A stretch of 32,000 nucleotides of DNA from Gammaproteobacteria bacterium (GTDB taxonomy: Bacteria; Pseudomonadota; Gammaproteobacteria; JBIOEC01): NCBI GenBank assembly GCA_965279305.1, contig OZ257143.1, forward strand, positions 1,410,001-1,442,000, in the 5' to 3' direction. The notes below the pieces were generated by a model. That model made no database searches and was not told the DNA's origin. It saw nothing but the letters and a program-made list of their open reading frames with translations. The position numbers and the translations under genes were made by a program. Shown here one piece after another: positions 2,280 to 17,837 of the stretch. Position 1 is the stretch's first letter; the number at the start of each line of letters is the position of its first letter.

Positions 2280-3833
2280 ATGCATTCGAATAATAGATTG
2301 GCCAAGTTTGTAGCTGCTTTTGCGAGCACCACTTTTATTTCCCGCTTGGTGGGTTTTTGGCGAGATGTGGTAGTGGCCAGTGTTTTTGGTGCGGGCGCTT
2401 ATTACGATGCTTTTTTAGTGGCATTTAAAATTCCTAATTTTTTACGCCGTCTTTCCGCTGAAGGTGCTTTTTCTCAAGCCTTTGTTCCACTTTTATCCGA
2501 ATATCAAACACGTGGGAATCACGAAGAAATTCAAGTACTGATTGATAAAGTGGCAGGTTCGTTAGCTTTTGTTTTATTTTGGGTCACTTTAGCGGGTGTT
2601 CTTGCAGCACCTTTTTTAATTTATATCTTTGCTCCTGGTTTTCAAGATGACACTACGCGTTGGGAGCTTTCAGTGGTGATGTTGCGGATCACTTTTCCTT
2701 ATTTATTTTTTATTTCTTTAACCGCTTTGGCTAGCAGTATATTAAATACTTACGGTAAATTTGCTGTGCCTGGTTTTACTCCGGTATGGTTAAATTTAAT
2801 TATGATTGCAGGTGCTCTTTATGCGGCGCCTTATTTTGATGAACCCATTTTAGCATTGGCGTGGAGTGTGTTTATAGCCGGCATAGTACAGTTACTTTTT
2901 CAGTTGCCGTTTTTATGGAAGTTGCGTGTATTTCCTCGTTTTCGCTGGGGATTTAATGATCCGGGAGTGAAGCGATTATTGGTAATGATGACGCCAATTA
3001 TGTTTGGTGCATCCGTTGCACAAGTCAATTTATTATTAGGAACTTTATTTGCTTCATTTCTACCGGCAGGTAGCCTATCATGGTTATACTTTGCTGAGCG
3101 TTTAATGGAATTTCCCTTAGGCATTTTTGGTGTTGCTTTAGCAACGGCGATATTGCCTGAACTTTCTCGTGAACATGCGGCGCAAAAACCTAAACAGTAT
3201 TCAGCTACTTTAGATTGGTCGATACGCAATATTTGTATTATTGGTTTACCTGCCGCGATTGGTTTAGGTGTGTTAGCTGAACCATTAATTACGACATTGT
3301 TTCATTATGGTGAGTTTACGATTAAAGATGTGTACGCTGTGGTTCCTGCTTTAGAAGCATTAGCGATTGGTGTATGGGCTTTTATGTTGGTTAAAATTTT
3401 AGCAGGTGCATTTTATGCTAAGCAAAATGTACGTACGCCGGTGCGAGTAGCCGTGTTTGCTGTAGTGATTAATATTATACTAAACTTATTATTGATGCCT
3501 AGCTTGGCGCATGTAGGTTTGGCCTTAGCAACAGTGCTTTCTGCTTTATTTAATGCCTTCACATTGCTAGTATTATTATGGTATCGTGGTCACTATAATC
3601 CTATGGATGGTTGGTTGAAGTTTAGTGTGCAATTATTGATCGCTTTAGGAATAATGTTGTTTTTCTTATGGTGGGGAATGGGTGAGTTAGCAGATTGGGT
3701 AAACAGAGTTTGGTGGGAGCGTTTGGGTTACCTACTAAGCTTAATTACAGGTGCTGTTGTTATTTATTTTGCCACTTTGCATATAAGTGGTTTGCGGGTA
3801 CAGCAAATGCTTCGTCCACAAAAAGTAGAATAA
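2280..3833 (+). CDS. murJ: Lipid II flippase MurJ (MviN)
   Basis: 517 aa and polytopic. The N-terminus is the typical MurJ signature, ...SRLVGFWRDVVVASVFGAGAYYDAFLVAFKIPNFLRRLSAEGAFSQAFVPLLSEY, followed by about 14 hydrophobic segments. Confidence 0.95.
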   Translation: MHSNNRLAKFVAAFASTTFISRLVGFWRDVVVASVFGAGAYYDAFLVAFKIPNFLRRLSAEGAFSQAFVPLLSEYQTRGNHEEIQVLIDKVAGSLAFVLFWVTLAGVLAAPFLIYIFAPGFQDDTTRWELSVVMLRITFPYLFFISLTALASSILNTYGKFAVPGFTPVWLNLIMIAGALYAAPYFDEPILALAWSVFIAGIVQLLFQLPFLWKLRVFPRFRWGFNDPGVKRLLVMMTPIMFGASVAQVNLLLGTLFASFLPAGSLSWLYFAERLMEFPLGIFGVALATAILPELSREHAAQKPKQYSATLDWSIRNICIIGLPAAIGLGVLAEPLITTLFHYGEFTIKDVYAVVPALEALAIGVWAFMLVKILAGAFYAKQNVRTPVRVAVFAVVINIILNLLLMPSLAHVGLALATVLSALFNAFTLLVLLWYRGHYNPMDGWLKFSVQLLIALGIMLFFLWWGMGELADWVNRVWWERLGYLLSLITGAVVIYFATLHISGLRVQQMLRPQKVE

Positions 3834-3862: not shown

Positions 3863-4642
3863 ATGCAAAGTAAGTTTTTTATTACTATCATTTCGTTTTC
3901 TTTATTTTTATTTTCTCCTTTTTTGCGTGCAGAATCACTATTTCAACAAGCTTTACAAAATGGACACATAGAGTTAAAGGGATCAATAGGTGGTGGCTGG
4001 CTGTCGGCTGATGATACTAGTTTGCACGTTACTAATACTGAAACAGATAGACTGACTTTTGATAATGCCGATGCTTTGTTTGTTTCTTTAGGCTTAGCTT
4101 ATGCTTATCCTTTAAATTATCGATTTTGGGAAACGTGGAGATGGTTTCCTGAGATTACGGCAAGTTTTGATGTGACAGAGCAATTTGAAACTACATTAGA
4201 TGGTGATGTTGATTTGTACGGTGCTGATTATCTTTTTCCTGGTTATGATTCTAAAACGGATGTTTCTAATACGAATTTGATGGCAAATTTAAGTTTGGAT
4301 GTTTTGAAGTATAAGGATTTGTCATTTTTTATTATAGGTGGAATAGGAGCTGCATGGACGGATATTTCTTATGCAGAAACACCTGATCCTGGTGTTGATC
4401 GAGGAAATATTACCCTGGATAGTAAAGCCAGTGTTACCTTTGCTATTCAAGTAGGCGGAGGCATAGGTTATCAATTGGCTCCTGATCTGAATGTGACAGT
4501 GACGTATCTTTACACAGATTTGGGATCACCCGAAACCGGTGATATGGGGAAAATAAACGGAATTCCTCATCCTGATGTTGAACCAATAACAATTAATCTA
4601 ATACAGCAGAGTATATTGTTGGGGTTGGAGTATGCATTCTAA
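3863..4642 (+). CDS. Small outer-membrane beta-barrel protein (OmpW/Opa-like OMP_b-brl type), 259 aa
   Basis: Track ORF 3695..4642 overlaps murJ. The in-frame ATG at 3863 gives a Sec signal peptide, MQSKFFITIISFSLFLFSPFLRA|ES. The sequence has alternating amphipathic strands (VTFAIQVGGGIGYQLAPDLNVTVTYLYTDLG) and ends in LLGLEYAF, a terminal aromatic residue typical of a BAM beta-signal. Its stop overlaps the start of the next gene. Confidence 0.75.
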   Translation: MQSKFFITIISFSLFLFSPFLRAESLFQQALQNGHIELKGSIGGGWLSADDTSLHVTNTETDRLTFDNADALFVSLGLAYAYPLNYRFWETWRWFPEITASFDVTEQFETTLDGDVDLYGADYLFPGYDSKTDVSNTNLMANLSLDVLKYKDLSFFIIGGIGAAWTDISYAETPDPGVDRGNITLDSKASVTFAIQVGGGIGYQLAPDLNVTVTYLYTDLGSPETGDMGKINGIPHPDVEPITINLIQQSILLGLEYAF

Positions 4643-7600
4643 AATAATGCATATTTTAGCTATTTTTTTTTCTCTACTTTCCACAAGTATAAATCTGGTT
4701 TTTGCAGACTCTACTACATTCGTAGAACCGCTAGCTTTCGTTCCACCATTACCCACTATTCCTTCCGATATAGGTGTGGGAGATTCAGTTCAAGTCACCT
4801 ACACTATTGTTAATAATGTGCCTACTACTTATTTACCTATCAGTACAGAAATTTTGGATTCGCATGATGTTCCTATCGACACGGTTATTACTCGGATCAA
4901 TATTGGCGTAGGTAATGATTGTGGACCGCAAGGTAATTTATTAAAACCCCTTGCTGAATGTAGTATTACTTTATCAATCGATCCTGTAGTGCCTGGTGCT
5001 CAAAGTTATACTTTGTCTATAGACTATGATGGACGTGATAATTTACTTTCACCTATTTCTTTTAATGGCGGTGCATTATCTGATTTTGTGTATGTGACGA
5101 ATAATACGGATGATACCGTAAGTGTTTGTGCAGAAGGTGCAGCCGGTGCTTTGGAGAGTTGTGCTACGGCGAGCACAGGTGTTAGCTTGAGTGGTCCTAC
5201 TGGAATTGCTATTCAAACTATTCCTGCTGTTACGGGCACAGCTTATGCTTATATTGTTAATGAAACCGCTCAAACGGTAACTCAATGTCCTATTGATACC
5301 AGCACTGGCGAATTTGTATCAGGAAGTTGTATCATAGCAACATCAGGATTATCTTCACCGGTGGGAATTGCTTTTCAGTCGTTTTCGGGAGATTTATATG
5401 CTTATATTACAGACTCTAATGTTTCAACACCGGGGGTAACTAAATGTGCGGTTAGTCAATCCAATGGAACATTCAGCGGGTGTGTTTTAGAAACTTCATC
5501 ACCTTTTAATGATCCGCATGGTATTACTGTTCGAACTATCAATAGCAGTGATTATGCTTATGTGACCAATGAAGCAACAGGAAGTGTGTCGCAATGTAGC
5601 ATAGATGTAAGTACAGGTGTTTTAGAAGGATGTTTTGATTCTGGAGCTGGAGATGTTTTTGATACGCCCGAAAATATTGCCTTTTTTACTTCAAATGCAC
5701 TGTATGCGTATGTGACTGATGCGGGCAGCTCAACACCTGGAGTCTGGCAATGCAATGTAAATACAACCACAGGAACCTTAAGCAGTTGTGTTCGTACTAC
5801 GGGTTTTACAGCGCCTAATGGAATTGCGTTTTCAACATTTGGTGGAACAAATTATGCGTATGTGACAAACGCAACAGGAGATCAAGTATCTCGATGTGCT
5901 GTTTCTCCTTCTAACGGAAATTTGGGAAGTTGTGTTTTTACTAGTGTCGGCATCACCATTTCGAATCCTACTGGAATTGCTGCATTTCAAGCAGGAGGCA
6001 ATCGTTATATTTATCCAGTAAATACCGATGGTAGTATTTTTCAATGTAGAGAAACCACATCGACAGGACAACTCTATTGTATTGATTCGGGGTTAGGAAC
6101 GGAATTTACTGCTCCGCAAGATTTAACTTTTCAAACGGTTAGCGGTAGTACTTATGCTTATGTCACCGATCCTAGCGTTCATACTATATTTCAGTGTAAT
6201 GTAAATTCGGGAACTGGGGGATTATCGGGTTGTGTCAATGCGGGCCCACTCGGATTTTCCGCTCCTTTTGATGTGGCATTTGGTACTGTTACTTCTACGC
6301 TTTATGCTTATGTTTCAGATGTTGCTTACGGTACTATTTTTAGATGTGATGTAACATTGACAGCGGGTGGTGGTCTTGTTGTGGGCGAATTATGTAATTG
6401 TACGGATGCGGATCAAAATATTGTTTCACCTCCTTATGTTGAACCTACGGGAATATCTTTCCAAACCTTTAGCGGTACAAATTTTATTTACACGGTGGAT
6501 CAAACTAATAATGCTGCTTATCGTTGTACTTTAAATAGTTCAGGTTTATTTACTGCCTGCTCTAATTTAAGTGTGGGGGGATTAAGCGATCCACAATCGA
6601 TTGGTTTTCAATCTGTGGGTGGAAATATCTATGCGTATATTCCTAATCATGGCGCTCAAACGGTTACCGTGTGTTTAGTTAATACTACAACGGGTGCATT
6701 GGGTTCGTGTTCTACTAGCAGCAGTTTAGGAGCAGTGCCTAATTCCATTACTTTTGATACGTTGAGTGGAACTACTTATGCTTATATCACCATGAATACG
6801 GGTTTGGTGGAACAATGTACCTTGAATTCTTCCACAGGATTATTAACGAGTTGTACTTCCTCGTTTGGTAATCCGATTAGTGTTGCCTTTAAAACGATTA
6901 CAGGGCCTCAGACATTGATGTATATCTTGCAAAGTGGTGGCAATGGGCTTGAAATTTGTGATGTCAGTTCAGGTGGCTTGGTTACTGCTTGTGAAGATTC
7001 CGGCACAGCATTTTCTTTTTCATTTCCTTATGTGCCTACTTCTCTAAGTTTTGGACCTGCAGTGGGTGGTGGACCTTTTGCTTATGTGACTAATGCACAA
7101 AGCACAGGTAGTGTGAGCGTATGTACTTGGAATGCAACAACAGGAGCCGTTTCAGCCTGTGCTGATTCTGGAGCTTCATTTAGTTTTGGAACACCGACCA
7201 GCATTTCCTTTGATCTGGTGGCCAGTGTTCTTTATGCGTATGTAGTGGATGAAGCAGGGGATAGAGTTATTAAATGTACCGTCAATCAGCCTGACGGAAA
7301 ATTAAGTAGTTGTGCAGCAGTATCGGTTTCTACTTTTGTACAACCTGAAGGTATTGCCTTCAGTGGTGATCAAGCTTATATCACGGATGCAGGAACCGAT
7401 CAGGTAGTTATTTGTACTCAAGGGACGAGTGGGTCATTAACAGTGTGCGCTAATTCTAGTGTGGGTGCTATTTTTTCTGAGCCTAATGCGATTGCTTTTT
7501 CTCTGGCTGACGTATCAGGTGCGCCTAATGCGTATGTGACTAATGATACGGGAGTAGCGACACAATGTATTATTGATGTTTCTAGCGGATTATTTTCATC

Positions 7601-7820
7601 TTGCTCTAATTCAGATGCAACAGGTATCGCGGATCCGAGTGGTATTGCATTTGAATCGGTGGAAGGTTCGACTTATGGTTATATTAGCAAAAGCACGGCC
7701 AATTCTGTGCAGAAATGCTTGTTTAATACGAGTACGGGAAAAATGAGTGGATGTGTAGATTCTGGTGCTGGGGCCATTTTTGCAGGTGCGGCTGGAATTG
7801 CATTTTTAAATCCGGGTTAA
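4632..7820 (+). CDS. Paralog 1 (1062 aa): secreted Cys-paired 18-unit beta-propeller-repeat protein with an N-terminal beta-sandwich-like domain; function unknown
   Basis: Long uninterrupted ORF. Signal peptide MHSKIMHILAIFFSLLSTSINLVFA|DS; the alternative ATG at 4647 lacks a basic n-region. The N-terminal domain spans about aa 30-150, followed by 18 YAYVTN...C...C...P.GIAF units. It ends ...GIAFLNPG. Confidence 0.9.
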   Translation: MHSKIMHILAIFFSLLSTSINLVFADSTTFVEPLAFVPPLPTIPSDIGVGDSVQVTYTIVNNVPTTYLPISTEILDSHDVPIDTVITRINIGVGNDCGPQGNLLKPLAECSITLSIDPVVPGAQSYTLSIDYDGRDNLLSPISFNGGALSDFVYVTNNTDDTVSVCAEGAAGALESCATASTGVSLSGPTGIAIQTIPAVTGTAYAYIVNETAQTVTQCPIDTSTGEFVSGSCIIATSGLSSPVGIAFQSFSGDLYAYITDSNVSTPGVTKCAVSQSNGTFSGCVLETSSPFNDPHGITVRTINSSDYAYVTNEATGSVSQCSIDVSTGVLEGCFDSGAGDVFDTPENIAFFTSNALYAYVTDAGSSTPGVWQCNVNTTTGTLSSCVRTTGFTAPNGIAFSTFGGTNYAYVTNATGDQVSRCAVSPSNGNLGSCVFTSVGITISNPTGIAAFQAGGNRYIYPVNTDGSIFQCRETTSTGQLYCIDSGLGTEFTAPQDLTFQTVSGSTYAYVTDPSVHTIFQCNVNSGTGGLSGCVNAGPLGFSAPFDVAFGTVTSTLYAYVSDVAYGTIFRCDVTLTAGGGLVVGELCNCTDADQNIVSPPYVEPTGISFQTFSGTNFIYTVDQTNNAAYRCTLNSSGLFTACSNLSVGGLSDPQSIGFQSVGGNIYAYIPNHGAQTVTVCLVNTTTGALGSCSTSSSLGAVPNSITFDTLSGTTYAYITMNTGLVEQCTLNSSTGLLTSCTSSFGNPISVAFKTITGPQTLMYILQSGGNGLEICDVSSGGLVTACEDSGTAFSFSFPYVPTSLSFGPAVGGGPFAYVTNAQSTGSVSVCTWNATTGAVSACADSGASFSFGTPTSISFDLVASVLYAYVVDEAGDRVIKCTVNQPDGKLSSCAAVSVSTFVQPEGIAFSGDQAYITDAGTDQVVICTQGTSGSLTVCANSSVGAIFSEPNAIAFSLADVSGAPNAYVTNDTGVATQCIIDVSSGLFSSCSNSDATGIADPSGIAFESVEGSTYGYISKSTANSVQKCLFNTSTGKMSGCVDSGAGAIFAGAAGIAFLNPG
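5082..7817 (+). repeat. Intragenic array of 18 ~50-aa (about 150-nt) blade-like units in paralog 1
   Basis: Units were delimited by hand from DFVYVTNNTDDTVSVC... to ...YGYISKSTANSVQKCLFNTSTGKMSGCVDSGAGAIFAGAAGIAFLNPG. The periodicity is at protein level and the DNA copies are diverged. Confidence 0.85.
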
Positions 7821-7843
7821 CGAGTAAAAGTTTGTATATTAAT

Positions 7844-7871
7844 TTGACATCCGACTAATTGATTTTATACT
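7844..7871 (+). promoter_or_regulatory. Candidate sigma70-type promoter upstream of paralog 2
   Basis: TTGACA (7844-7849), a 16-nt spacer, then TATACT (7866-7871), within the 82-nt spacer between paralogs 1 and 2. The AATTTGACAT context recurs upstream of paralog 5. Confidence 0.4.
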
Positions 7872-7902
7872 TTGATAATCTTTAATGAGATAAAGGAATA
7901 CC

Positions 7903-10900
7903 ATGAGAAAAATAGCAAAATATAGTCTTTCTATTTTTCTTCCTTGTTTATTATTAATGCATGCTAGCGCTGCTTTTTCTCAATGTGATCAAAAGTTAGA
8001 TACCGATCCTATCGCATTTACCGCTATTCCTACGTATCCAACGAATATTGCTATTGGTGAAACTATTGATTTTGATTACACTGTCACTAATAACTCTAGT
8101 CGAATAACCATGACGGTGACATCATCACTGAATGGAACGCCGGCGGATCAAGCCTCAATTGTAGTAGGTGCCGATGATTGTTCAACAGGTGATATAGGTC
8201 CTTTTGGAGATAGTTGCCATCTCACGGTTGAAGTCAGCCCCACTACAACAGGAGCGACTTCCTACGTGCTTGCTATTAATTATACGGTCAGTGGTGATCC
8301 TTCTTGTTTTGATGATGTTACCACTCCTATTTCTTTTAATGCTGTTCCCGCTGTTAATTACGCCTATATTCCGAATCAAGATGGAAACTCAGTAACGGTT
8401 TGCGATAATACAGGTGCTAGTGGTTTAGATAATTGTATTGATACGGGTGCAACTAGTTTGACTGCACCTTCTGCTATAGAAATTTTACCCGCTTCGTCAG
8501 CATTTTCATCTTTTATGAGTGTCTTTAACATTGCTTATATCACCAATTCTGGCGCAAATACGGTTACTCGATGTTCTATTAATGTGGCTGATGGTACTTT
8601 TGATTTATGTGGGGACTCAGGTGCAGGTAATATTTTTAATGAACCTCTTGGACTTGCTTTTGATACCAGTGATTTTCTTTATGGCTATGTCGTTAATGTT
8701 AATGGCGCAGATATTACCAAATGCCAAGTGGCGTCTGCCGATGGTGCTTTTTCAGGTTGTATTAATGCTGTAGAGATCCTTTCTATACCGAGTGGTATTG
8801 CCATACAAACTTTCGGCGGAACGGATTATGCCTATATTGCTAATGCCGCTTCTGGAACGATAACGCAATGCACAGTAAATTCAGGTACGGGCGCATTAGA
8901 ACTGTGTGTAGATTCTGGTTTGGGCTCTGTTTTTTCTTCTCCTAATAGCATAGGGTTTTTTACCAGTGCAGACACTTATGCCTATGTAGCTGATATCGCT
9001 GAAGGTGGGAGTGGAGGAGTGTGGCAATGTGATGTGGATACTTCTACCGGAATATTAAGCAATTGTATATTCGTTTCAGACGGCGCTCTTGCTGGTGCTA
9101 AAGGCATTACTTTTGCTGAAGAGGATACTGATAATTATCTTTATGTAGGTGGTGCCGGTACTGATCGGACCGGCGCTTGTGTAATAGATTTTGCTACCGG
9201 CAATTTAACGTCTTGCGCGGCTTATTTCTTATATTCCTCAGATGAGGTTTCGGATATGGTCGCGCAGACTTTTAATAGTATTGATTATTTGTATACAGCA
9301 GAGCCTGTTACGGGTGCAATGTTGCAATGCAAAATATCAGATGACGTGGGCAGACTTTATTGTATTGAAGCGGGAACTAGTCTTCCTTTTTTGACTCCGG
9401 TATCTATTATTTTTAATGTTAATGCAGATACTAATACTTACGCGTATGTGCCTGATCCCGGATCAAATTTAGTGTGGGTATGCGATGTTAATATTACCAC
9501 AGGCCAATTAAGTGCTTGTGTGGATTCCGGCGGTGTGTTGCTTGCATCGTTTGATATGGTATTTACTACGGTTAATTCTGTTCCGTATGCTTATGTGAGT
9601 GATGCTTCTTCAACAGTATGGCAATGCCAGGTTGCTTCAGGCGGCGCTCTCAGTGGATGTACGGATGCTGGGGTATCTTTAGGAACGCCACCTTATGCAG
9701 TTCCCACGGGGCTTTCATTTCAACTATTTGGAGGTGTTGATTATATTTATGTAAGTGACAGCACCAATAATGCGGTATATCAGTGTGCTTTAGATAATAC
9801 GACAGGTTTATTTACGGCTTGTCCTGATTCTGGAGCGGGTGCAGTGTTTGATATGCCTACTTTTACAACATTTCAAGAAGTGACTTCTGTTTTATATGCT
9901 TATATTAGCAACTCCAACATAAGTGGTGCATTGACAATGGGGCAATGTACGGTTGATACCAGTACAGGATTGTTTAGTGCTTGCACAACATCTACTTTGT
10001 CAGCAGCTCCTGTGGGTTCTGCTTTTAAAACAGTTGATGCAATTCTTTATGCTTATGTGGCACTTGAGGGCGCTTCTGAGGGGGCTATTAATCGGTGTAA
10101 TGTTTTATCGGGTGGAGGCTTAAACCAGTGTAGTACTGTTTTTGGAGCGCCTTCTAGTGTTGAAATAAGTAGTATCAATAGTGGTGCTAATCAAGTTTTA
10201 TATGTGACAGAAAATGGAGGCAGTGGTGTTCTAGGTTGTCTTGTTGACACGACCGATGGTTCAATTGTTTTCTGTCAAGATGCGGGAACTGGTTTTATGT
10301 TTGATGCTCCTACTGATATCACTTTTCTTTCTATTGGTGGTAATAATTTTGCTTATATTAGCGATTCTACTCTTGGAACGGTAACCCAATGTTTGCAAAA
10401 TAATACAACGGGAATTCTTTCCAGTTGTGTGGATTCTGGCGCTACATTTTCACTGCCCACGGCGATTACCTTTGATACGCTTTCAGGACCCGTGATTTAT
10501 GCTTATGTGTTAGATCTTAATGGAAATATCGCCGAGCAATGTTTAGTGGATGATACAACAGGACTTTTTAGCGGCTGTACAACCACGGCCACTTTATTTG
10601 AGCATCCATTAGCTATCGTATTTAATGGAGATTTTGCTTATATTTCAGATCAAACCTTAAGCAGAGTGTTGATGTGTCAAAAAAATTCATCTGGCGTATT
10701 AATGTTGTGTGTTGATTCCGGTGCTGGAAACGTTTTTGTCGCTCCAGCAGGAGTTGCTCTTTTTACGGATACAGATGCCGATTTAAATATGTATGTGACT
10801 GAGCTAGGAACTAATAGTGTGACATTTTGCTTGGTAGACGCTATGACTGGATTAGCTAATCCAGCAAGCTGTGCCGATTCGGGTGTGGGCGCTGCATTTG

Positions 10901-11097
10901 CGCTTCCTGCGGGTCTTAAATTTGAACCTTTTATGGGCACATCTTATGTTTATGTACCTAATATTGCGACTTCAGATCCATTGTCGAATACGGTTTCACA
11001 ATGTACTTTAAATGCCGATGGTAGTTTTAATGCGTGTAGTGATTCGGGCGCCACATTATTAGATAAGCCTTTTAGTATTACTTTCTTCAATCCTTAA
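7903..11097 (+). CDS. Paralog 2 (1064 aa): same family, long form
   Basis: AAGGA Shine-Dalgarno sequence 6 nt upstream. Signal peptide MRKIAKYSLSIFLPCLLLMHASA|AF. The N-terminal domain includes ...CHLTVEVSPTTTGATSYVLAINYTVSGDPSCFDDVT. There are 18 repeat units, ending ...FSITFFNP. Confidence 0.9.
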   Translation: MRKIAKYSLSIFLPCLLLMHASAAFSQCDQKLDTDPIAFTAIPTYPTNIAIGETIDFDYTVTNNSSRITMTVTSSLNGTPADQASIVVGADDCSTGDIGPFGDSCHLTVEVSPTTTGATSYVLAINYTVSGDPSCFDDVTTPISFNAVPAVNYAYIPNQDGNSVTVCDNTGASGLDNCIDTGATSLTAPSAIEILPASSAFSSFMSVFNIAYITNSGANTVTRCSINVADGTFDLCGDSGAGNIFNEPLGLAFDTSDFLYGYVVNVNGADITKCQVASADGAFSGCINAVEILSIPSGIAIQTFGGTDYAYIANAASGTITQCTVNSGTGALELCVDSGLGSVFSSPNSIGFFTSADTYAYVADIAEGGSGGVWQCDVDTSTGILSNCIFVSDGALAGAKGITFAEEDTDNYLYVGGAGTDRTGACVIDFATGNLTSCAAYFLYSSDEVSDMVAQTFNSIDYLYTAEPVTGAMLQCKISDDVGRLYCIEAGTSLPFLTPVSIIFNVNADTNTYAYVPDPGSNLVWVCDVNITTGQLSACVDSGGVLLASFDMVFTTVNSVPYAYVSDASSTVWQCQVASGGALSGCTDAGVSLGTPPYAVPTGLSFQLFGGVDYIYVSDSTNNAVYQCALDNTTGLFTACPDSGAGAVFDMPTFTTFQEVTSVLYAYISNSNISGALTMGQCTVDTSTGLFSACTTSTLSAAPVGSAFKTVDAILYAYVALEGASEGAINRCNVLSGGGLNQCSTVFGAPSSVEISSINSGANQVLYVTENGGSGVLGCLVDTTDGSIVFCQDAGTGFMFDAPTDITFLSIGGNNFAYISDSTLGTVTQCLQNNTTGILSSCVDSGATFSLPTAITFDTLSGPVIYAYVLDLNGNIAEQCLVDDTTGLFSGCTTTATLFEHPLAIVFNGDFAYISDQTLSRVLMCQKNSSGVLMLCVDSGAGNVFVAPAGVALFTDTDADLNMYVTELGTNSVTFCLVDAMTGLANPASCADSGVGAAFALPAGLKFEPFMGTSYVYVPNIATSDPLSNTVSQCTLNADGSFNACSDSGATLLDKPFSITFFNP
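8356..11094 (+). repeat. Intragenic array of 18 blade-like units in paralog 2
   Basis: Hand-delimited from NYAYIPNQDGNSVTVC... to ...YVYVPNIATSDPLSNTVSQCTLNADGSFNACSDSGATLLDKPFSITFFNP. Confidence 0.85.
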
Positions 11098-11120
11098 TGG
11101 AAAAGTGAGTTGATGGATCG

Positions 11121-14100
11121 ATGAATACCAATAGAAAATTAAAAACGAATATTTATTTGTTCATTTCACTTTTTTTAATGAGTGCAACTACTTTTGCTAA
11201 TAAAATAGAGGAAAAAAATGTTTGTATTCCCAAAAAAGATAGTATTGAACAATTACCTTTGGAGTTTCAATCTAATATTCCTGTTCCCCCCATTCCTGCC
11301 AATATTTCAATAGGTAATTTAGCCAGTTATGATTTTACTTTAGTAAATAATAGTCCTGATACCATAGGTATTACGGCTTCTATAACCGGCTCTCCTATCG
11401 GTGATGCTACCGTAGATTCGGGTTCACAATGTTTATCAGGAACATGGGCGCCAGCAGCAACTTGTACTTTAACCGTTGATATTGATCCCACGGTAACAGG
11501 TGCCGCTACTTATGTTCTTTCTGCGAATTACACCGTGAGTGGCGATCCTTCATGTTTTAATGATGTGACGGTTGATATTGATTACAATGCTATCGATGCT
11601 TTTGTTTATGTTTCTAATTCTCAGGGTGATTCCGTCACGGTATGTAAAAATACAGGACCTAGTGGTTTTACCGATTGTGGTGATGCCGGTGCGACCAGCA
11701 CATTTGATGGGCCCGGTGGAATTAGAGTTCCTGTTGAAACGTTTTCTGGCGATAAATATGCTTATGTCACTAGTTTCGGTACAAACACCGTTTCACAATG
11801 TTTAATTGATCTGACAGATGGAACATTTGCTGATCCCTGTGTGGATTCCGGGGCTGGTACTATTTTTTCATTACCCGCCGATATCGCATTTAATGCGGCG
11901 AGCAGCACATTATATGCTTATATTACTAATAGCGGCGGGTTTGATGTAATAAAATGTGTGACGGATCTTTCTGATGGAACATTAGGCACGTGTGGAACGG
12001 CATCAGCTCCTTTTGATTCGCCTTTTGGGATCGCACATCAAACCGTAACGGGTTTAAGTGTAGAGGCCGCTTATATTACTAATCAAGATGCAGGAACCGT
12101 AACTCAATGCGCCATTACCGGTGAATCAGGACAATTGGTTCATTGTTTTGATTCGGGCCCTGGAGATATATTTACTACACCCACGAATATTACCTTTTTT
12201 GAAACCGCGGATATTTATGCTTATATTACTGATTTTGATTACTTAAGCGCGGGAGCGGTTTGGCAGTGTCTTTTTAGTCCATCAAACGGATTATTAAGTG
12301 CTTGTGCTACAACAGGTTCTGGTTTTGATCATCCTTTGGGTATTTCATTTGAAACAGTGAACAGTGTTGATTATGCGTATGTAACGAATGCTTTAACAAA
12401 TACGGTAGAAACCTGCGATGTGGATTCCGGTAGTGGAAACTTAACTTCATGCGCGAGTAGTTCTTTGCTTTCAACCGATATTTTGATTGATATTACTCAG
12501 CAGAGTTTTTCAGGTTCTGATTATTTATATGTAGCTGATGCAGTACAGGAGTCTATTTTACAATGCAAAATAGATAGCACGACTATAGAAACGGCCAATA
12601 TTTATTGTATTGATTCAGGAACAGCGGGTGTGTTTTCAAATCCCCCAAGCTCTGTGACTTTTCAAGTGGTTAATGGAACCACGTATGGTTATGTGAATGA
12701 ACCCGAAAGTGGGATTGTTTGGCAATGTACGGTAAATACTAGCACAGGACAATTTACAGGATGTGTGGATTCGGGTCCTATTGGTTTTGAGGCGCCTTAT
12801 GTTACGACGTTAGGTACGGTGAATTCAGTTTTGTATGCCTATGTTTCTGATGTGGATTTTGATACTGTATGGCAATGTGAGGTGGATGCAGTGACCGGAG
12901 CTTTGTGCGATTGTACGAATGCAGCCCAAAATATAGGGGATCCTCTAGATAGCCCTATAGGAGTATCATTCCAAACGTTTGCAGGTACAAGTTATGTTTA
13001 TGTAGGAGAGCTTGTTAATGGTGATATTCAAAAATGTACTCTGAATGCCACTACAGGTTTGTTCACTGCCTGTGTAGACTCAGGCGCCTCTGCACTGAAT
13101 CAGCCCGCAGCGTTTGAATTTAAGACTATTAATTCTAATTTGTATATTTATATTCCTAATCTAGATCCTACCGTGATGACACCTTTTTTAACTAAATGTC
13201 TTGTTAATACCACCACAGGACAATTTTCAGCGTGTTCTGATAATGATTTTGATAGCGGGCAGGCTGGAATTGCATTTCAAGCAGTGGATGGCACTAATTA
13301 TGCTTATGTCACCGTAGGTGATTCGACTACTTTTGGAGAAATTTTGCGTTGTGTAGTAGGCAGTGATGGCAGTTTGTCTACTTGTGTATCTCCTTTTGGA
13401 GAGCCCAATAGTATTGCATTGCAACTTTTAACGGGAGGCAGCACGGTTGCTTATGTTGCACAAGCAGGAGGAAGCGGTATTTTAGAATGCCAAGTCAATA
13501 ATTCTAATGGTTCAATCACTAGTTGTGCAGATGCGGGAACCCGTTTTTCTTTTTCTTCTCCTGTAGAAATCATGTTGGAAACGATTGGCTCCACTACTTT
13601 TGCTTATATTTCGGATAGTGTTTTAAATACGGTAACTCAATGTATCCCAAATTTAACTACAGGTGCTTTGGCTTCGTGTGTGGATTCAGGTGCTGGTGCT
13701 ATTTTTACACAACCGGCGGGCGTTACATTTGATTTGGTAGACAGTGGGTTTTTTGCTTATGTGGTGGATGAGGCAGGTGATACCGTGACTCAATGTATAG
13801 CAGATGAAATTACAGGGTTGTTTAGTGCCTGCGAAACCACGGGAACATTTTTTGTTGATCCATTGGGAATTACTTTTAACGACAATAAAGTTTATATTGC
13901 CGAAAGTACACAAGCGGAAGTGACTACTTGTGATCAACGTAGCGATGGTTTTTTGATCAATTGTATAAATTCAGGACCCGATCCTTCGGTATTTGCTAGG
14001 CCTACCGGTGTTGGCGTTTTCAATGATGCAGATGGTGATGAACATCTTTATGTATCTAATTCTCTCAATGTAGGTGGGCCTCCTGATAGCACCGTTGCTT

Positions 14101-14369
14101 ATTGTCTTGTAGATCCGACTACGGGTTTATTAAGTGCTTGCGCTGATTCTGGTTTAGGTCAAATTTTTGCGTCTCCTGCGGGGCTTGCTTTTCAAGCTTT
14201 TGACGGAACATTTTTTCTGTATATCACTAATTCTGATACAGTAGAGACTCCTAATAATTCGGTTTCTCGTTGTACGTTAAACGCAGATGGTACTTTAAAT
14301 GCCTGTGTGGATTCAGGCGCTGGTATGATATTTAATAATCCAGTGGGAATTGCGTTTTTAAATCCATAA
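11121..14369 (+). CDS. Paralog 3 (1082 aa): same family, long form
   Basis: Starts 23 nt after the paralog 2 stop. Signal peptide ...IYLFISLFLMSATTFA|NK. The N-terminal domain includes ...CTLTVDIDPTVTGAATYVLSANYTVSGDPSCFNDVT. There are 18 repeat units, ending ...VGIAFLNP. Confidence 0.9.
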   Translation: MNTNRKLKTNIYLFISLFLMSATTFANKIEEKNVCIPKKDSIEQLPLEFQSNIPVPPIPANISIGNLASYDFTLVNNSPDTIGITASITGSPIGDATVDSGSQCLSGTWAPAATCTLTVDIDPTVTGAATYVLSANYTVSGDPSCFNDVTVDIDYNAIDAFVYVSNSQGDSVTVCKNTGPSGFTDCGDAGATSTFDGPGGIRVPVETFSGDKYAYVTSFGTNTVSQCLIDLTDGTFADPCVDSGAGTIFSLPADIAFNAASSTLYAYITNSGGFDVIKCVTDLSDGTLGTCGTASAPFDSPFGIAHQTVTGLSVEAAYITNQDAGTVTQCAITGESGQLVHCFDSGPGDIFTTPTNITFFETADIYAYITDFDYLSAGAVWQCLFSPSNGLLSACATTGSGFDHPLGISFETVNSVDYAYVTNALTNTVETCDVDSGSGNLTSCASSSLLSTDILIDITQQSFSGSDYLYVADAVQESILQCKIDSTTIETANIYCIDSGTAGVFSNPPSSVTFQVVNGTTYGYVNEPESGIVWQCTVNTSTGQFTGCVDSGPIGFEAPYVTTLGTVNSVLYAYVSDVDFDTVWQCEVDAVTGALCDCTNAAQNIGDPLDSPIGVSFQTFAGTSYVYVGELVNGDIQKCTLNATTGLFTACVDSGASALNQPAAFEFKTINSNLYIYIPNLDPTVMTPFLTKCLVNTTTGQFSACSDNDFDSGQAGIAFQAVDGTNYAYVTVGDSTTFGEILRCVVGSDGSLSTCVSPFGEPNSIALQLLTGGSTVAYVAQAGGSGILECQVNNSNGSITSCADAGTRFSFSSPVEIMLETIGSTTFAYISDSVLNTVTQCIPNLTTGALASCVDSGAGAIFTQPAGVTFDLVDSGFFAYVVDEAGDTVTQCIADEITGLFSACETTGTFFVDPLGITFNDNKVYIAESTQAEVTTCDQRSDGFLINCINSGPDPSVFARPTGVGVFNDADGDEHLYVSNSLNVGGPPDSTVAYCLVDPTTGLLSACADSGLGQIFASPAGLAFQAFDGTFFLYITNSDTVETPNNSVSRCTLNADGTLNACVDSGAGMIFNNPVGIAFLNP
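11598..14366 (+). repeat. Intragenic array of 18 blade-like units in paralog 3
   Basis: Hand-delimited from AFVYVSNSQGDSVTVC... to ...FLYITNSDTVETPNNSVSRCTLNADGTLNACVDSGAGMIFNNPVGIAFLNP. Confidence 0.85.
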
Positions 14370-14379
14370 ATATTAATAT

Positions 14380-14407
14380 TTGACTTTTGAGCAAACTATT
14401 CCATAAT
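14380..14407 (+). promoter_or_regulatory. Candidate sigma70-type promoter upstream of paralog 4
   Basis: TTGACT (14380-14385), a 16-nt spacer, then CATAAT (14402-14407), within the 67-nt spacer. The local string TTTGACTTTTGAG parallels TTTGACATTTGAG at 17753. Confidence 0.35.
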
Positions 14408-14436
14408 TGTATAGATAAGTTATAAAGGATGAAAAA

Positions 14437-17400
14437 ATGAAAAGGAATTTTACAATCAGCGCAGGTGTTTTCCTTTCATTCTTATTTAGTGGTTATTCAC
14501 TTGCAGCAGAAACCGCTTGTGACAAACCTAAATACAATTTGCTTACTTTGCCTTTAGAATTTGTTTCTACTACTCCAACGCCACCCATTCCTGCTAATCT
14601 GCCATTGGGAGAGACCAGTACCTATATTTATTCATTGGTTAATAATAGCCCTAATATTATACGAGTTGATCCATCGATTATTCCACAAGGAGGATCGCCT
14701 TCAGGGGATGTGACTATTGACGCAAGCTCAACGTGTTCGCTAAGCGTAGACACCACCGCTAATGGAGGTACGTGTACAGTTGTTGTTGATATCGAACCTA
14801 CTGTGCTAGGTGCTGCTTCTTATATATTAAGTGCGGTGTTTGAAATAGGGGGCGATCCTTCGTGTTTCGTCCCTGTTACAGCGGATATTTCTTATACTGC
14901 AATACCGGGTGCTTATGCGTACATTACTAATGGATCTAACGATAGCGTGACATATTGTGTGTATGGGATTGCAGGTGCGTTTAGTGATTGTGCCGATTCA
15001 GGTGCTACAGGCGGTACTTTTGACGCACCAGCGGGAATTGCCATTCCGAGTACCACTTTTACCGGTTTTAGTTATGCCTATGTAGCCAATGCGGGCGATA
15101 ATACGGTGTCGCAATGTTTAATAGATTCATCTACAGGAGCCTTTGATTCTTGTGGTGATTCTGGCGCGAGTACAGCGTTTGATGTGCCAACAGGAATTAC
15201 TTTTTACACAGTGGTATCTGCCTTAGAATCATATGTAAGCACGCTCTATTCTTATATAGTTGATAACGGCGGCGCAAATGTCACTCAATGTGACGTTTCT
15301 ACGGTTAACGGCGCTTTAAGCAGCTGTAGCAGCGCAACCGCCAGTGCATTTGATGCGCCGGAAGGGATCGCTGTGGAAGATTTTGGTGGTGCTACCGATT
15401 ATACTTATATTGTTAATAATGGTGCTGGAACGGTAACGCAATGCAGAACGAATGGTTCTGGTTTACTCGTTAATTGTTTTGATTCTGGATTAGCGCCTGA
15501 TTTTACCTTTGTTGATCCGGTTGATATCGCCTTTTTTGAATCCACTGATTGGTATGCTTATGTAACCGATTCTTCTGCGAATATTGTTTATCAATGTACG
15601 GTCGATACAGCATCGGGACAATTGCTAGATTGCGTAACAAGTGAGGCTACGGGTGTTAATTTGCCTAATGGTATTACTTTCGCAACCGTAAACAGCATTG
15701 ATTATGCTTATGTCACCGATTTTGGTGATAATACACTCTCGGTTTGTACTATTGATCCGGGCCCTGGGGTAACGGATGGAAACCTGACTTGTGGTACGGC
15801 AGATTCTCTTCGTTTTTCTACAGCCGCTGTAGGTCTTACTCGTCAGGTTTTTAATAGCGTAAATTATCTTTACGTGACCGATCAGACTAATAGTAAAATT
15901 TCGCAATGTAAAATGTATTCGCCTAATGGCCAAATCTATTGTATTGATGCAGGTACCGGCAATAGTTTTTTTGAAAGACCTCTTTCATTGGTGTTTAATA
16001 CCAATCCAGGCAATGCAACGGTATACGCCTATATCACTGATATAGATACTTCTGTGCGTGATATTTTTCGTTGTATTCCCAATTCGACTACAGGACAATT
16101 GGGTAGTTGTGTAAATGCAGGGCCTCTTGGTTTTTCACAGCCGTTTGATTTAACGTTTGCCACAGCCGCTATTAATAGTAATTATTATGTTTACATCAGC
16201 GATCAGGATTATGGCACGGTTTTTCAATGCGAATTGGACACCGATGGAACTATTACTGGCACTGTGGGCGCATTATGTAATTGTACCGATGCCGCTCAAA
16301 ATTTAGTGAGTGTTCCTTATAGTCAGATTTCGGGCGTGAGTTATCAAGCTTTTACTGATGGCCCGTTTGTTTATGTTGCTGATGAGGTTGATGGTCAGGT
16401 TTATAGATGTACGGTGGATGCGGGTGTGAGCGGAACAGGTTTATTTACCGCTTGCACGGATTCAGGGGCTGGCAGTGCGTTTACAGCACCTGCTGATATT
16501 GCTTTTCAGGCTGTCACAGGTACTACCTATGTCTATGTGACAGCTCAAACTGCAAGCGAAGTGAATAAATGTACGGTGAATACGACTACCGGTGTTTTCT
16601 CTGCTTGCACGGATTATGTGACGCCAGAAGATTCGTTATCGATCACTTTTGATGCGGCGTCTCCTCCACTTTATGCATATATTTCAACGGTTCCAACAAC
16701 CGATGGATTTACATTAAATAAATGTTCACTAGGAGCAGCGGGTGCTATTTCTTCTTGTGTTACCCCTTTTGGTAACCCTACCAGCCTGGCCGTAAATAAT
16801 CCTTCTGTTTATACGGGCACTGGTTCCGTAGGATATATTACTCAATTAGGTGGTTCTGGATTGGCTGCCTGTCTTTTGGTGAATGCCGATGGAACAGTAG
16901 GAGGATGCTTTGATTCTGGAACCGGTTTTCTTTTCAGCGGGCCTTCGGATGTTATTTTTGGTACTTATTCGGCCGTAACTTATGCTTATATTGCAGATGC
17001 TGATGGTCATATTTATAAATGTACCTGGAATAGTACTTCCGGTGTACTTTCTGCTTGCGCCGCTTCTTCAGCAACCTTTACTAATCCTGACGGAATTGCC
17101 TTTAGCGAAGATGGAACTCATCTTTATGTCACAAGCGAAGGAGCCAATATAGTTAGCGAATGTAGTATGAATTCTGTGGGTGTTATTGGTTCTTGTGTGA
17201 CTACAGGATCTATTTTTGAAACACCCGCTGATATAGTATTTGGCGATACACAAGCTTATATTACGGATCAAGGAAACGATAGCGTAATAATGTGCGATAT
17301 CAATTCTTCAGGGTTATTAACCGCGTGTGTGGACTCAGGTGCCACCGATATATTAACGCCTAACGGTATTACACTTTATGAAGACACTAATTCAGTTACA

Positions 17401-17742
17401 CATGCTTATATTACGAATGATACCGCTTCAGGTGGAGTAGCTAATTCTGTCACTTCATGTGTGGTTGATGGTGGTACTGGATTACTCTCTGCTTGCACAG
17501 ATTCAGGTGTAACAGATGCATTTGATTTGCCTTATGGTATAGCTTTCCAAGCTTTTGATGGAACACCTTTTGCTTATGTTACCAACTCGGATGATGCGGG
17601 TGTTGATCCTTTATCTAACACTGTTTCTAAATGTGAAGTAGATGATGATGGTGTTCTAAGCACTTGTGTAGATTCAGGGGCAGGTGATGCTGATTTTGAT
17701 GGACCACAAGGCATTGCATTCTTTCCGTCTGTGACTAATTAA
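14437..17742 (+). CDS. Paralog 4 (1101 aa): same family, long form
   Basis: AAAGGA Shine-Dalgarno sequence 7 nt upstream. Signal peptide MKRNFTISAGVFLSFLFSGYSLA|AE. The N-terminal domain includes ...CTVVVDIEPTVLGAASYILSAVFEIGGDPSCFVPVT. There are 18 repeat units, ending ...QGIAFFPSVTN. Confidence 0.9.
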   Translation: MKRNFTISAGVFLSFLFSGYSLAAETACDKPKYNLLTLPLEFVSTTPTPPIPANLPLGETSTYIYSLVNNSPNIIRVDPSIIPQGGSPSGDVTIDASSTCSLSVDTTANGGTCTVVVDIEPTVLGAASYILSAVFEIGGDPSCFVPVTADISYTAIPGAYAYITNGSNDSVTYCVYGIAGAFSDCADSGATGGTFDAPAGIAIPSTTFTGFSYAYVANAGDNTVSQCLIDSSTGAFDSCGDSGASTAFDVPTGITFYTVVSALESYVSTLYSYIVDNGGANVTQCDVSTVNGALSSCSSATASAFDAPEGIAVEDFGGATDYTYIVNNGAGTVTQCRTNGSGLLVNCFDSGLAPDFTFVDPVDIAFFESTDWYAYVTDSSANIVYQCTVDTASGQLLDCVTSEATGVNLPNGITFATVNSIDYAYVTDFGDNTLSVCTIDPGPGVTDGNLTCGTADSLRFSTAAVGLTRQVFNSVNYLYVTDQTNSKISQCKMYSPNGQIYCIDAGTGNSFFERPLSLVFNTNPGNATVYAYITDIDTSVRDIFRCIPNSTTGQLGSCVNAGPLGFSQPFDLTFATAAINSNYYVYISDQDYGTVFQCELDTDGTITGTVGALCNCTDAAQNLVSVPYSQISGVSYQAFTDGPFVYVADEVDGQVYRCTVDAGVSGTGLFTACTDSGAGSAFTAPADIAFQAVTGTTYVYVTAQTASEVNKCTVNTTTGVFSACTDYVTPEDSLSITFDAASPPLYAYISTVPTTDGFTLNKCSLGAAGAISSCVTPFGNPTSLAVNNPSVYTGTGSVGYITQLGGSGLAACLLVNADGTVGGCFDSGTGFLFSGPSDVIFGTYSAVTYAYIADADGHIYKCTWNSTSGVLSACAASSATFTNPDGIAFSEDGTHLYVTSEGANIVSECSMNSVGVIGSCVTTGSIFETPADIVFGDTQAYITDQGNDSVIMCDINSSGLLTACVDSGATDILTPNGITLYEDTNSVTHAYITNDTASGGVANSVTSCVVDGGTGLLSACTDSGVTDAFDLPYGIAFQAFDGTPFAYVTNSDDAGVDPLSNTVSKCEVDDDGVLSTCVDSGAGDADFDGPQGIAFFPSVTN
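14911..17739 (+). repeat. Intragenic array of 18 blade-like units in paralog 4
   Basis: Hand-delimited from AYAYITNGSNDSVTYC... to ...FAYVTNSDDAGVDPLSNTVSKCEVDDDGVLSTCVDSGAGDADFDGPQGIAFFPSVTN. Confidence 0.85.
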
Positions 17743-17753
17743 CGCCTGTTAAT

Positions 17754-17781
17754 TTGACATTTGAGAAATAAAACCTACACT
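17754..17781 (+). promoter_or_regulatory. Candidate sigma70-type promoter upstream of paralog 5
   Basis: TTGACA (17754-17759), a 16-nt spacer, then TACACT (17776-17781). A perfect TATAAT also occurs at 17792-17797. Confidence 0.35.
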
Positions 17782-17837
17782 CAGTGGGGTTTATAATATT
17801 CTCAGAAATAGTATTTTCACATGACGCAAGGATGGCC

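Follow-up and report, generated by a model that had tools for sequence, protein, structure and literature searches.

Introduction

The beta-propeller proteins closest to those considered here include members of two classes. NHL propellers, such as the PknD sensor (1RWI), Pizza6, and NHLRC2, consist of six four-stranded blades of about 42–50 residues, and we know of no conserved cysteine pair per blade in NHL proteins. The PknD propeller, from which the Pizza6 designs derive, is extracytoplasmic. Propellers of the YVTN/lactonase class, including the Methanosarcina protein 1L0Q, YbhE/Pgl (1RI6), YncE, and Bacteroides BtuG, have seven blades and no cysteine hairpin; many YVTN-type proteins are surface-exposed binders. 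Several propellers are present in one chain in LRP6 and megalin (LRP2), whose tandem six-bladed YWTD propellers are extracellular ligand binders, and in DDB1, which has three seven-bladed ones. Here we describe an array of six paralogous genes, par1 to par6, in a 32,000-nucleotide stretch of a gammaproteobacterial genome (GenBank assembly GCA_965279305.1, contig OZ257143.1, positions 1,410,001–1,442,000 of the forward strand; hereafter the window, numbered from its first nucleotide). Each gene encodes 18 repeat units of about 50 aa, nearly all with a cysteine pair, which are most likely arranged as three six-bladed beta-propellers (6+6+6).

With NHL propellers the window proteins share six four-stranded blades per predicted propeller and a predicted extracytoplasmic location, and NHL proteins provide the best profile matches in the PDB; they differ in having three predicted propellers fused head to tail and longer units. 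The motif YVxN ... P.GIA is shared with the YVTN/lactonase class, but the window modules have six units instead of seven blades and carry the cysteine hairpin. As in LRP6/LRP2 and DDB1, several propellers would be present per chain; however, YWTD and WD40 motifs are absent, the predicted propellers are joined by 2–5 residues only and not by EGF spacers as in LRP, and whole-chain template modelling (TM) scores of only 0.1–0.23 indicate that the propellers are arranged differently. An analogy, not a homology, is offered by Plasmodium falciparum CyRPA, a secreted binding protein with a six-bladed propeller and five sequential intra-blade disulfides that stabilise their blades (PMC5349852). CyRPA is a eukaryotic, single-propeller protein of the sialidase-type fold with Asp-box, its velcro blade has no disulfide, and it was outside the top 50 Foldseek matches of the first predicted propeller of par1.

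Number and register of the repeat units

The six genes are co-directional on the plus strand and encode proteins of 953–1101 aa with a mutual identity of 31–43%. In par1 (4632–7820; 1062 aa, or 1057 aa if translation starts at the ATG at 4647), a signal peptide and an immunoglobulin-like (Ig-like) N-terminal domain precede the repeat region, which in its entirety occupies positions 5082–7817 (residues 151–1062). It is followed by par2 (7903–11097, 1064 aa), par3 (11121–14369, 1082 aa), par4 (14437–17742, 1101 aa), par5 (17784–20714, 976 aa as listed, with the true start probably at the ATG near 17832), and par6 (20734–23595, 953 aa).

To count the units independently of a manual reading, a hidden Markov model (HMM) was seeded with one arbitrarily chosen stretch of 52 aa and iterated over the six proteins with phmmer, hmmbuild, and hmmsearch, converging after one round. 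It found 18 non-overlapping units in each of par1–par4, 16 in par5, and 17 in par6, with per-unit E-values of 1e-6 to 1e-22, and the repeat periodicity is far above chance. The units are contiguous from the first YAYV-like strand through to the C-terminus. The gaps left by the HMM, at residues 571–669 of par5 and 533–591 of par6, contain degenerate four-strand units, recognisable by eye from their YAYV-like and GIAF-like strands; unit 12 of par5 is degenerate yet keeps its cysteine pair (C639, C650), and its C-terminal half is detected by the HMM at a looser threshold. The 18 units per protein delimited by hand in the first-pass annotation of this DNA were therefore recovered in all six proteins, with the qualification that automated detection reproduces this number for par1–par4, while par5 and par6 fall short by two and one units that are below the threshold. 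The proteins also end where that annotation placed their ends, close to the final GIAF-like strand (3–6 residues after it; four in par1).

Eighteen units are likewise present in all 10 full-length close homologues among P0001–P0010 and in the 8 full-length genes of two metagenomic loci, L001 and L002. Units with the same index in different paralogs are much more alike than units with different indices (BLOSUM scores of 96 and 54, respectively), which indicates that the 18-unit architecture is older than the duplications that produced the paralogs. At the DNA level, a repeat search revealed diverged (60–85%) unit-level repeats only and no long recent conversion tracts.

The units are not equally conserved. 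The mean HMM score is lowest for unit 12 (27 bits) and unit 6 (34 bits), followed by units 9, 1, 13, and 7 (36–40 bits), with 42–60 bits for the rest, and the lowest identity among paralogs was found for units 12, 6, and 11. Since the lowest-scoring units mainly flank the 6|7 and 12|13 junctions, divergence is concentrated around these two positions. Units 1, 7, and 13, singled out earlier as atypical, do contain the unusual motifs quoted for them, but by HMM score units 6 and 12 are more atypical.

Cysteine pairs

Along the chains, pairs of cysteines 10–18 residues apart (start to start; Cys-x(9–17)-Cys) alternate with gaps of 33–47 residues. There are 18 such pairs in each of par1–par4 and 17 in each of par5 and par6, where one gap of 90–94 residues is present; the total numbers of cysteines in par1 to par6 are 39, 41, 41, 41, 35, and 36. 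In unit 11 of both par5 (residues 571–620, nucleotides 19494–19643, plus strand) and par6 (residues 533–591, nucleotides 22330–22506, plus strand) both cysteines are replaced (e.g., VKSYFLDTSGDFTYSYT). The statement that every unit of all six proteins has one cysteine hairpin is thus correct for par1–par4 and has to be amended for par5 and par6.

The position of the cysteines was examined in an AlphaFold2 model of full-length par1, in which every unit forms four strands, B, C, D, and A in chain order. The first cysteine of the pair (C1) precedes the end of strand C by two residues in 18/18 units, and the second (C2) is found three residues into strand D in 16 of them, independently of the length of the intervening loop (5–12 residues); the exceptions are unit 7, where C2 is two residues into the strand, and unit 2, where it is just outside the assigned strand. 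In 17 of the 18 units, C1 and C2 are on adjacent antiparallel strands at matching depth. Co-loss of cysteines was surveyed in 1,783 aligned units, of which 1,571 originate from proteins of the cysteine type. About 1,552 of the latter contain both cysteines, 7 contain neither, and about 5–12 contain one, several of these being truncated envelopes. Under independent loss about 0.1 double losses would be predicted, compared to the 7 observed. The simultaneous loss of both cysteines from unit 11 of par5 and par6 argues for pairing within a unit rather than between neighbouring units. Because the cysteines are located in adjacent strands C and D of the predicted structure and are lost jointly, one intra-blade disulfide per blade is likely, and the disulfides proposed in the first-pass annotation thereby gain indirect support.

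Unit 9 of par1 contains an insertion and an extra cysteine (C588/C590, window 6387–6395; C588 in C-N-C within L-C-N-C-T-D-A), with equivalents in par3 (C596/C598) and par4 (C614/C616), while par2 has none. The extra residue makes the total number of cysteines odd in par1, par3, and par4, which counts against the overall explanation given below; it could be a free thiol or participate in an alternative pairing or an intermolecular bond. The odd count and the C-x-C of unit 9 could also be taken to mean that the pairs serve as metal ligands or redox-active thiols instead of forming structural disulfides. We consider this extremely improbable, since the proteins are exported, each unit has only two cysteines, on adjacent antiparallel strands at matching depth, the pair is lost jointly, and neither a conserved histidine nor an additional cysteine that could complete a metal site was found across 14 homologs and 16 six-unit modules.

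Export and the N-terminal domain

All six paralogs start with Sec-type signal peptides, and in a crude hydropathy test a signal-peptide-like N-terminal hydrophobic segment was found in 159 of 189 family members (~84%), while 46 of the 189 contain lipobox-like sites. The suggested oxidising destination of the proteins agrees with these data.

The Ig-like domain is present in par1–par4 and absent from par5 and par6. In par1 it is a beta-sandwich of residues 26–150 (4707–5081, plus strand) with one cysteine pair (C97, C110). The N-terminal domains score below curated cutoffs, with 25.7 bits for choice-of-anchor D (NF012200) against a cutoff of 45, and matches to ASH and HYDIN_VesB had sub-threshold E-values of 0.05–0.08. 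No match to an Ig family was obtained for the domain of par1 itself; the sub-threshold ones came from the equivalent domains of par2–par3. The last strand of this domain, at window 5040–5081 (residues ~137–150) in par1 and with equivalents in par2–par4, has the consensus P-ISFNA, with YAYI following after 4–6 residues. It resembles the P-x-GIAF motif of the A strand of the repeat and is missing from par5 and par6; judging by the sequence, blade 1 of par1–par4 might use it as its A strand.

Six-unit modules among relatives

Besides distant relatives, an initial homology search returned only some twelve close ones. The seven most distant matches all contain exactly six units at the extreme C-terminus, and one further match has twelve. 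When 1.84 billion representative proteins were searched exhaustively with a profile, 9,767 matches were obtained at E ≤ 1e-3 and 837 matches at the stricter threshold of E ≤ 1e-30, numbers that refer to cluster representatives and include cysteine-less YVTN-type relatives. Units were counted in the best 150 of these matches pooled with those of the word-indexed searches. Among 219 relatives with the cysteine hairpin, 168 have 6 units, 14 have 5, 12 have 11–12, and 17 have 16–18; the peaks of this distribution imply that the cysteine-hairpin unit comes in modules of six. Six-unit modules nearly always reach the C-terminus of the protein. No orthologous assignment of modules was possible, because the alignment of distant relatives to the paralogs works equally in any register. 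The cysteine-less relatives, by contrast, have anywhere between 3 and 21 units, and their counts do not peak at six; several of them, with totals of 7, 8, 14, or 21 units, show runs of 7 or 14, which were observed in these relatives only.

A module invariably starts with the YAYV (B) strand and ends with the GIAF (A) strand, and the window proteins consist of three modules in the same phase. In par1 these are module 1 (units 1–6, residues 151–456, 5082–5999), module 2 (units 7–12, residues 457–758, 6000–6905), and module 3 (units 13–18, residues 759–1062, 6906–7817), all on the plus strand and predicted to form the first, second, and third propellers. The triple form is rare and was seen only in this lineage and in a few metagenomic relatives (P0027–P0031); the nearest named family members belong to Legionella and to metagenome-assembled genomes (MAGs) of Legionellales. 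In single-module relatives the propeller is located at the C-terminal tip, after Big_2, fn3, TIG, ASH, CARDB, or cadherin-like domains, and some of these relatives are lipoproteins. Bacterial surface and adhesin-like proteins are usually organised in this way.

Predicted fold

The full-length par1 model, based on a 14-sequence alignment, has a mean predicted local distance difference test (pLDDT) score of 81.5 and a predicted TM-score (pTM) of 0.55. It is all-beta, with an N-terminal domain of eight strands followed by exactly 72 strands in the repeat region, four per unit. The pLDDT values form three plateaus, of about 84 (residues 151–456), 92 (457–758), and 80 (759–1062), which shift at units 7 and 13. 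Module 1 was also modelled separately from an alignment of 16 six-unit modules; the result was one compact all-beta domain of 24 strands with a pLDDT of 92.8 and a pTM of 0.92, and the pLDDT of the five models ranged from 92.0 to 92.8.

In Foldseek comparisons the best superpositions of module 1 were with six-bladed proteins, namely LRP6 (TMq 0.66, 4.5 Å), megalin (0.65, 4.5 Å), and a phytase (0.64, 4.6 Å), whereas the seven-bladed BtuG, YbhE, and YncE superposed at about 6 Å or worse. For full-length par1 the matches in the PDB were multi-propeller proteins, megalin/LRP2, LRP6, and DDB1 (E-values of 1e-21 to 1e-14), and a profile of the module matched the PDB sequences of Pizza6 (5e-10), PknD (1e-4), and NHLRC2 (1.5e-4). 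The relationship to described families is remote. The Pfam NHL model (PF01436) was missed, with a best score of 13.9 bits (E-value 0.056) against a cutoff of 20, as was TIGR02276 (11.6 against 27.85 bits). The cutoff of the lactonase family PF10282 was passed by par1 (42.7 bits), par4 (32.2), and par5 (25.1), with matches covering only about 55–75 of its 344 positions, and was missed by par2, par3, and par6.

Altogether, the 6/12/18 unit counts of the relatives, the module 1 model, and the matches to six-bladed folds and profiles give substance to the three six-bladed propellers that had been offered as a speculation, and we regard this triple-propeller architecture as highly probable. Several observations weigh against it. 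As the module 1 model was made from exactly six units, its closure was in part predetermined; the TM-scores against solved six-bladed propellers are only 0.60–0.66, and the lowest Foldseek E-value belongs to the seven-bladed YVTN S-layer protein 1L0Q. In the par1 model, the junction between strand A of unit 6 and strand B of unit 7 consists of two residues, like an ordinary intra-blade hairpin, which makes closure of each propeller on its own last strand difficult to envisage. When the similarity between units was analysed by lag in search of an ancestral triplication of six units, the peaks at lags of 3, 6, and 12 were weak and not decisive.

Some of these points could be accommodated by another partition of the blades (e.g., 9+9 or 7+7+4) or by an open beta-solenoid-like superstructure; the pTM of the full-length model is only 0.55, the lengths of the A–B junctions do not set 6|7 apart, and the lowest E-value of module 1 is for a seven-bladed protein. 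Such structures are nevertheless very improbable given that relatives have 6, 12, or 18 units with the six-unit module at the C-terminus, that module 1 has a pTM of 0.92 in each of its five models, that the pLDDT plateaus change at units 7 and 13, and that the lowest root-mean-square deviations were obtained with six-bladed propellers.

For three six-bladed propellers the model leaves two possible modes of closure. Each propeller may close on its own last strand, or the last strand of each may pass to the next propeller, with the C-terminal strand of the chain completing blade 1. The 12-to-13 junction of the par1 model consists of five residues. Between par5 and par6, conservation is highest in units 1, 17, and 18, with 61–74% identity compared to 18–49% in the other units, which is consistent with strand hand-over without being proof of it. 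The conserved end regions are located approximately at 17919–18070 and 20390–20711 in par5 and at 20809–20970 and 23250–23592 in par6, and unit 1 of the two genes is 83% identical over 92 nt. This similarity of the terminal units points either to conversion or to both ends of the chain being under a common constraint.

Outer-membrane barrel neighbour and divergence of the locus

Immediately upstream of the array there is a gene (3863–4642, plus strand) for a 259-aa outer-membrane beta-barrel protein (OMP) of the OMP_b-brl type, with a signal peptide and the C-terminal sequence ...LEYAF. It scores 28.5 bits against the Pfam OMP_b-brl model, just below the cutoff of 28.7, and no sequence relative was found in the PDB. 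The stop codon at 4642 overlaps or abuts the start of par1 (ATG at 4632 or 4647). Homologous OMP genes (27–94% identity) adjoin 18-unit genes in four other contigs, L001 (1682–2461), L002 (1448–2239), a JGI contig, and L004 (13947–14723). In two of the contigs a predicted protein of ~125 aa is encoded between the OMP and propeller genes, that of L004 having hydrophobic, membrane-like segments. The recurrence of this linkage in five independent contigs, including that of the window, suggests on the basis of gene order that the OMP and the propeller proteins are functional partners.

The propeller genes have diverged much more than their neighbours. Between the window and L001, proteins of the flanking genes are 87–98% identical, compared to 55% for par1, 69% for par3, and 53% for par4, while par2 is the most conserved paralog between relatives (86–92%). 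Synonymous divergence (dS) was compared between window positions 4632–17742 and the corresponding spans of L001 (2451–15486) and L002 (5420–11966). With L001, dS is 0.27–0.68 for the flanks and 1.0–1.6 for par1, par3, and par4; with L002 it is about 3.9 for murJ and 0.33 for par2. The content of the array also varies: the five genes of L001 include no equivalent of par5/par6, and in L002 the par1 ortholog is preceded by an additional gene. Such mosaic dS values suggest that the locus has undergone recombination or allele exchange, or that the metagenome assemblies are chimeric; a mosaic pattern of divergence would be expected of a recombining locus encoding exposed proteins.

Possible function

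The following explanation, comprising architecture, disulfides, export, binding, and partnership with the OMP, appears reasonably probable as a whole. Each gene would encode a Sec-exported protein in which every unit of ~50 aa supplies three strands (B, C, and D) to one blade and its remaining strand, A, to the following blade. The 18 units would be grouped 6+6+6 into three six-bladed propellers of a remote NHL/YVTN-like type, preceded in par1–par4 by the Ig-like beta-sandwich. Upon oxidation in the periplasm, C1 in strand C and C2 in strand D would form an intra-blade disulfide stapling the outer hairpin, and 17–18 such bonds per protein would produce a very rigid extracytoplasmic scaffold. 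The proteins could act as non-enzymatic binding modules, displayed on or released from the cell surface, with the ~260-aa outer-membrane barrel probably serving as their anchor or partner, and the paralogs would differ in the loop surfaces, hence in ligand.

The role as binding modules is suggested by the hundreds of bacteria that carry a single module at the tip of Ig-like stalks, and the structural neighbours of the module are mostly extracytoplasmic binders (S-layer, BtuG, LRP, and PknD-sensor type). The functional part of the proposal, in which disulfide-rigidified binding proteins work with the OMP at the outer membrane or beyond it, is put forward tentatively.

The names given to relatives suggest instead that the proteins could be periplasmic or secreted enzymes, i.e., hydrolases similar to lactonases, arylesterases, or cycloisomerases with the active site in the propeller channel. 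The PF10282 cutoff is passed by par1, par4, and par5, and relatives carry matches to PF10282, PF01731, and PF08450 and have been given the names lactonase or 6-phosphogluconolactonase in JGI and NCBI annotation. However, the PF10282 matches cover a small part of the model and fail in the other three paralogs, this family is seven-bladed while the window modules have six units, and relatives have an adhesin-like domain context. Nearly every residue that is invariant across the 14 homologs and 16 modules is C, Y, G, P, or F; polar invariants are few and mostly belong to the recurring DSGAG loop motif, and no histidine, glutamate, asparagine, arginine, or lysine is invariant. An enzymatic role therefore seems decidedly unlikely.

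Location in the periplasm deserves more weight. As soluble scaffolds or sensors similar to TolB or YncE, the proteins might not be exposed at the surface at all, and the OMP might be merely a conserved neighbour. The window paralogs have signal peptides but no lipobox and no recognisable C-terminal sorting or autotransporter domain, secretion-system genes are absent from the window, periplasmic propellers of the YncE type are structural neighbours, and some relatives are named YncE by JGI. Yet single-module relatives are often lipoproteins or are carried on long Ig-like stalks typical of surface proteins, divergence much faster than that of the flanking genes combined with mosaic dS is expected of exposed proteins, and the OMP adjacency has been kept although the OMPs of relatives are only 27–51% identical. 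This makes an exclusively periplasmic role rather unlikely.

A bolder version of surface-exposed binding could also be envisaged for an uncultured, probably host-associated gammaproteobacterial lineage, in which the triple propellers and the small barrel constitute an undescribed surface-display module, the three propellers form a triangle closed by strand hand-over, and the six paralogs are a rapidly diversifying repertoire of recombining heads for binding to a host or prey. We consider this combination unlikely.

Novelty and implications

The fold class, an NHL/YVTN-like propeller, is already known, and the label 'beta-propeller fold lactonase family' is already applied to relatives by automatic annotation. 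No account of a propeller family with the cysteine hairpin emerged from literature searches, and the libraries searched contain no model of its own. Thus, the six-bladed sub-family with one predicted disulfide per blade, the 6/12/18 modularity of its cysteine-hairpin units, and the OMP-linked locus of six paralogs with the predicted triple propellers all appear to be undescribed. Members of this large and widespread family are now mis-filed as 'seven-bladed lactonase' and would be better described as six-bladed extracytoplasmic propellers with one putative disulfide per blade and one to three copies per chain.

The six-gene block of ~19 kb takes up roughly 1% of the 1.87 Mb contig, which may be most of the genome; this share, together with evolution much faster than that of the neighbouring genes, suggests an important exposed function. 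Eighteen sequential hairpin disulfides would make these proteins a demanding and informative substrate for studies of Dsb-dependent oxidative folding, as well as a natural template for the design of hyper-stable propellers. Should these proteins prove to be no more than a structural variant whose binding role is ordinary, the value will lie mainly in correct annotation.

Gene neighbourhood

No open reading frame of at least 150 aa is present on the strand opposite to the array, and Rfam and tRNA scans of the window gave no matches. Near-consensus sigma-70-like promoter hexamers (10–11 of 12 matches) were noted at 7844–7871, 14380–14407, and 17754–17781, in the short gaps ahead of par2, par4, and par5, although promoter-like sites over the whole region are rarer than in shuffled sequence. 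As far as can be judged from these motifs, each paralog may be transcribed individually.

Upstream of the array and the OMP gene, the window contains a GHMP-kinase gene, mevalonate kinase-like (858–1865), and murJ (2280–3833). The nearest named relatives of MurJ, from Methylophaga, Nitrosococcus, and a Piscirickettsiaceae MAG, are only 52–56% identical, which places the source in a deep gammaproteobacterial lineage, represented by the 1.87-Mb contig and a small number of contigs from metagenomes. On the downstream side, the array is followed by ribF, a gene for a major facilitator superfamily transporter on the minus strand, and a DJ-1/PfpI gene, beyond which there are two paralogous genes with no assigned function and a eukaryotic-type Ser/Thr kinase gene. 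The proteins encoded by the two paralogous genes (26777–28393 and 28448–29866) are 24% identical (E-value 5e-17), have no Pfam match, and possess proline-rich C-termini. In the product of the last gene (29899–31707) the kinase domain follows an N-terminal region of ~270 aa with no Pfam match, which appears leucine-rich-repeat-like by eye. From their sequences these three genes (26777–31707) look effector-like, a hint of a host-associated lifestyle.

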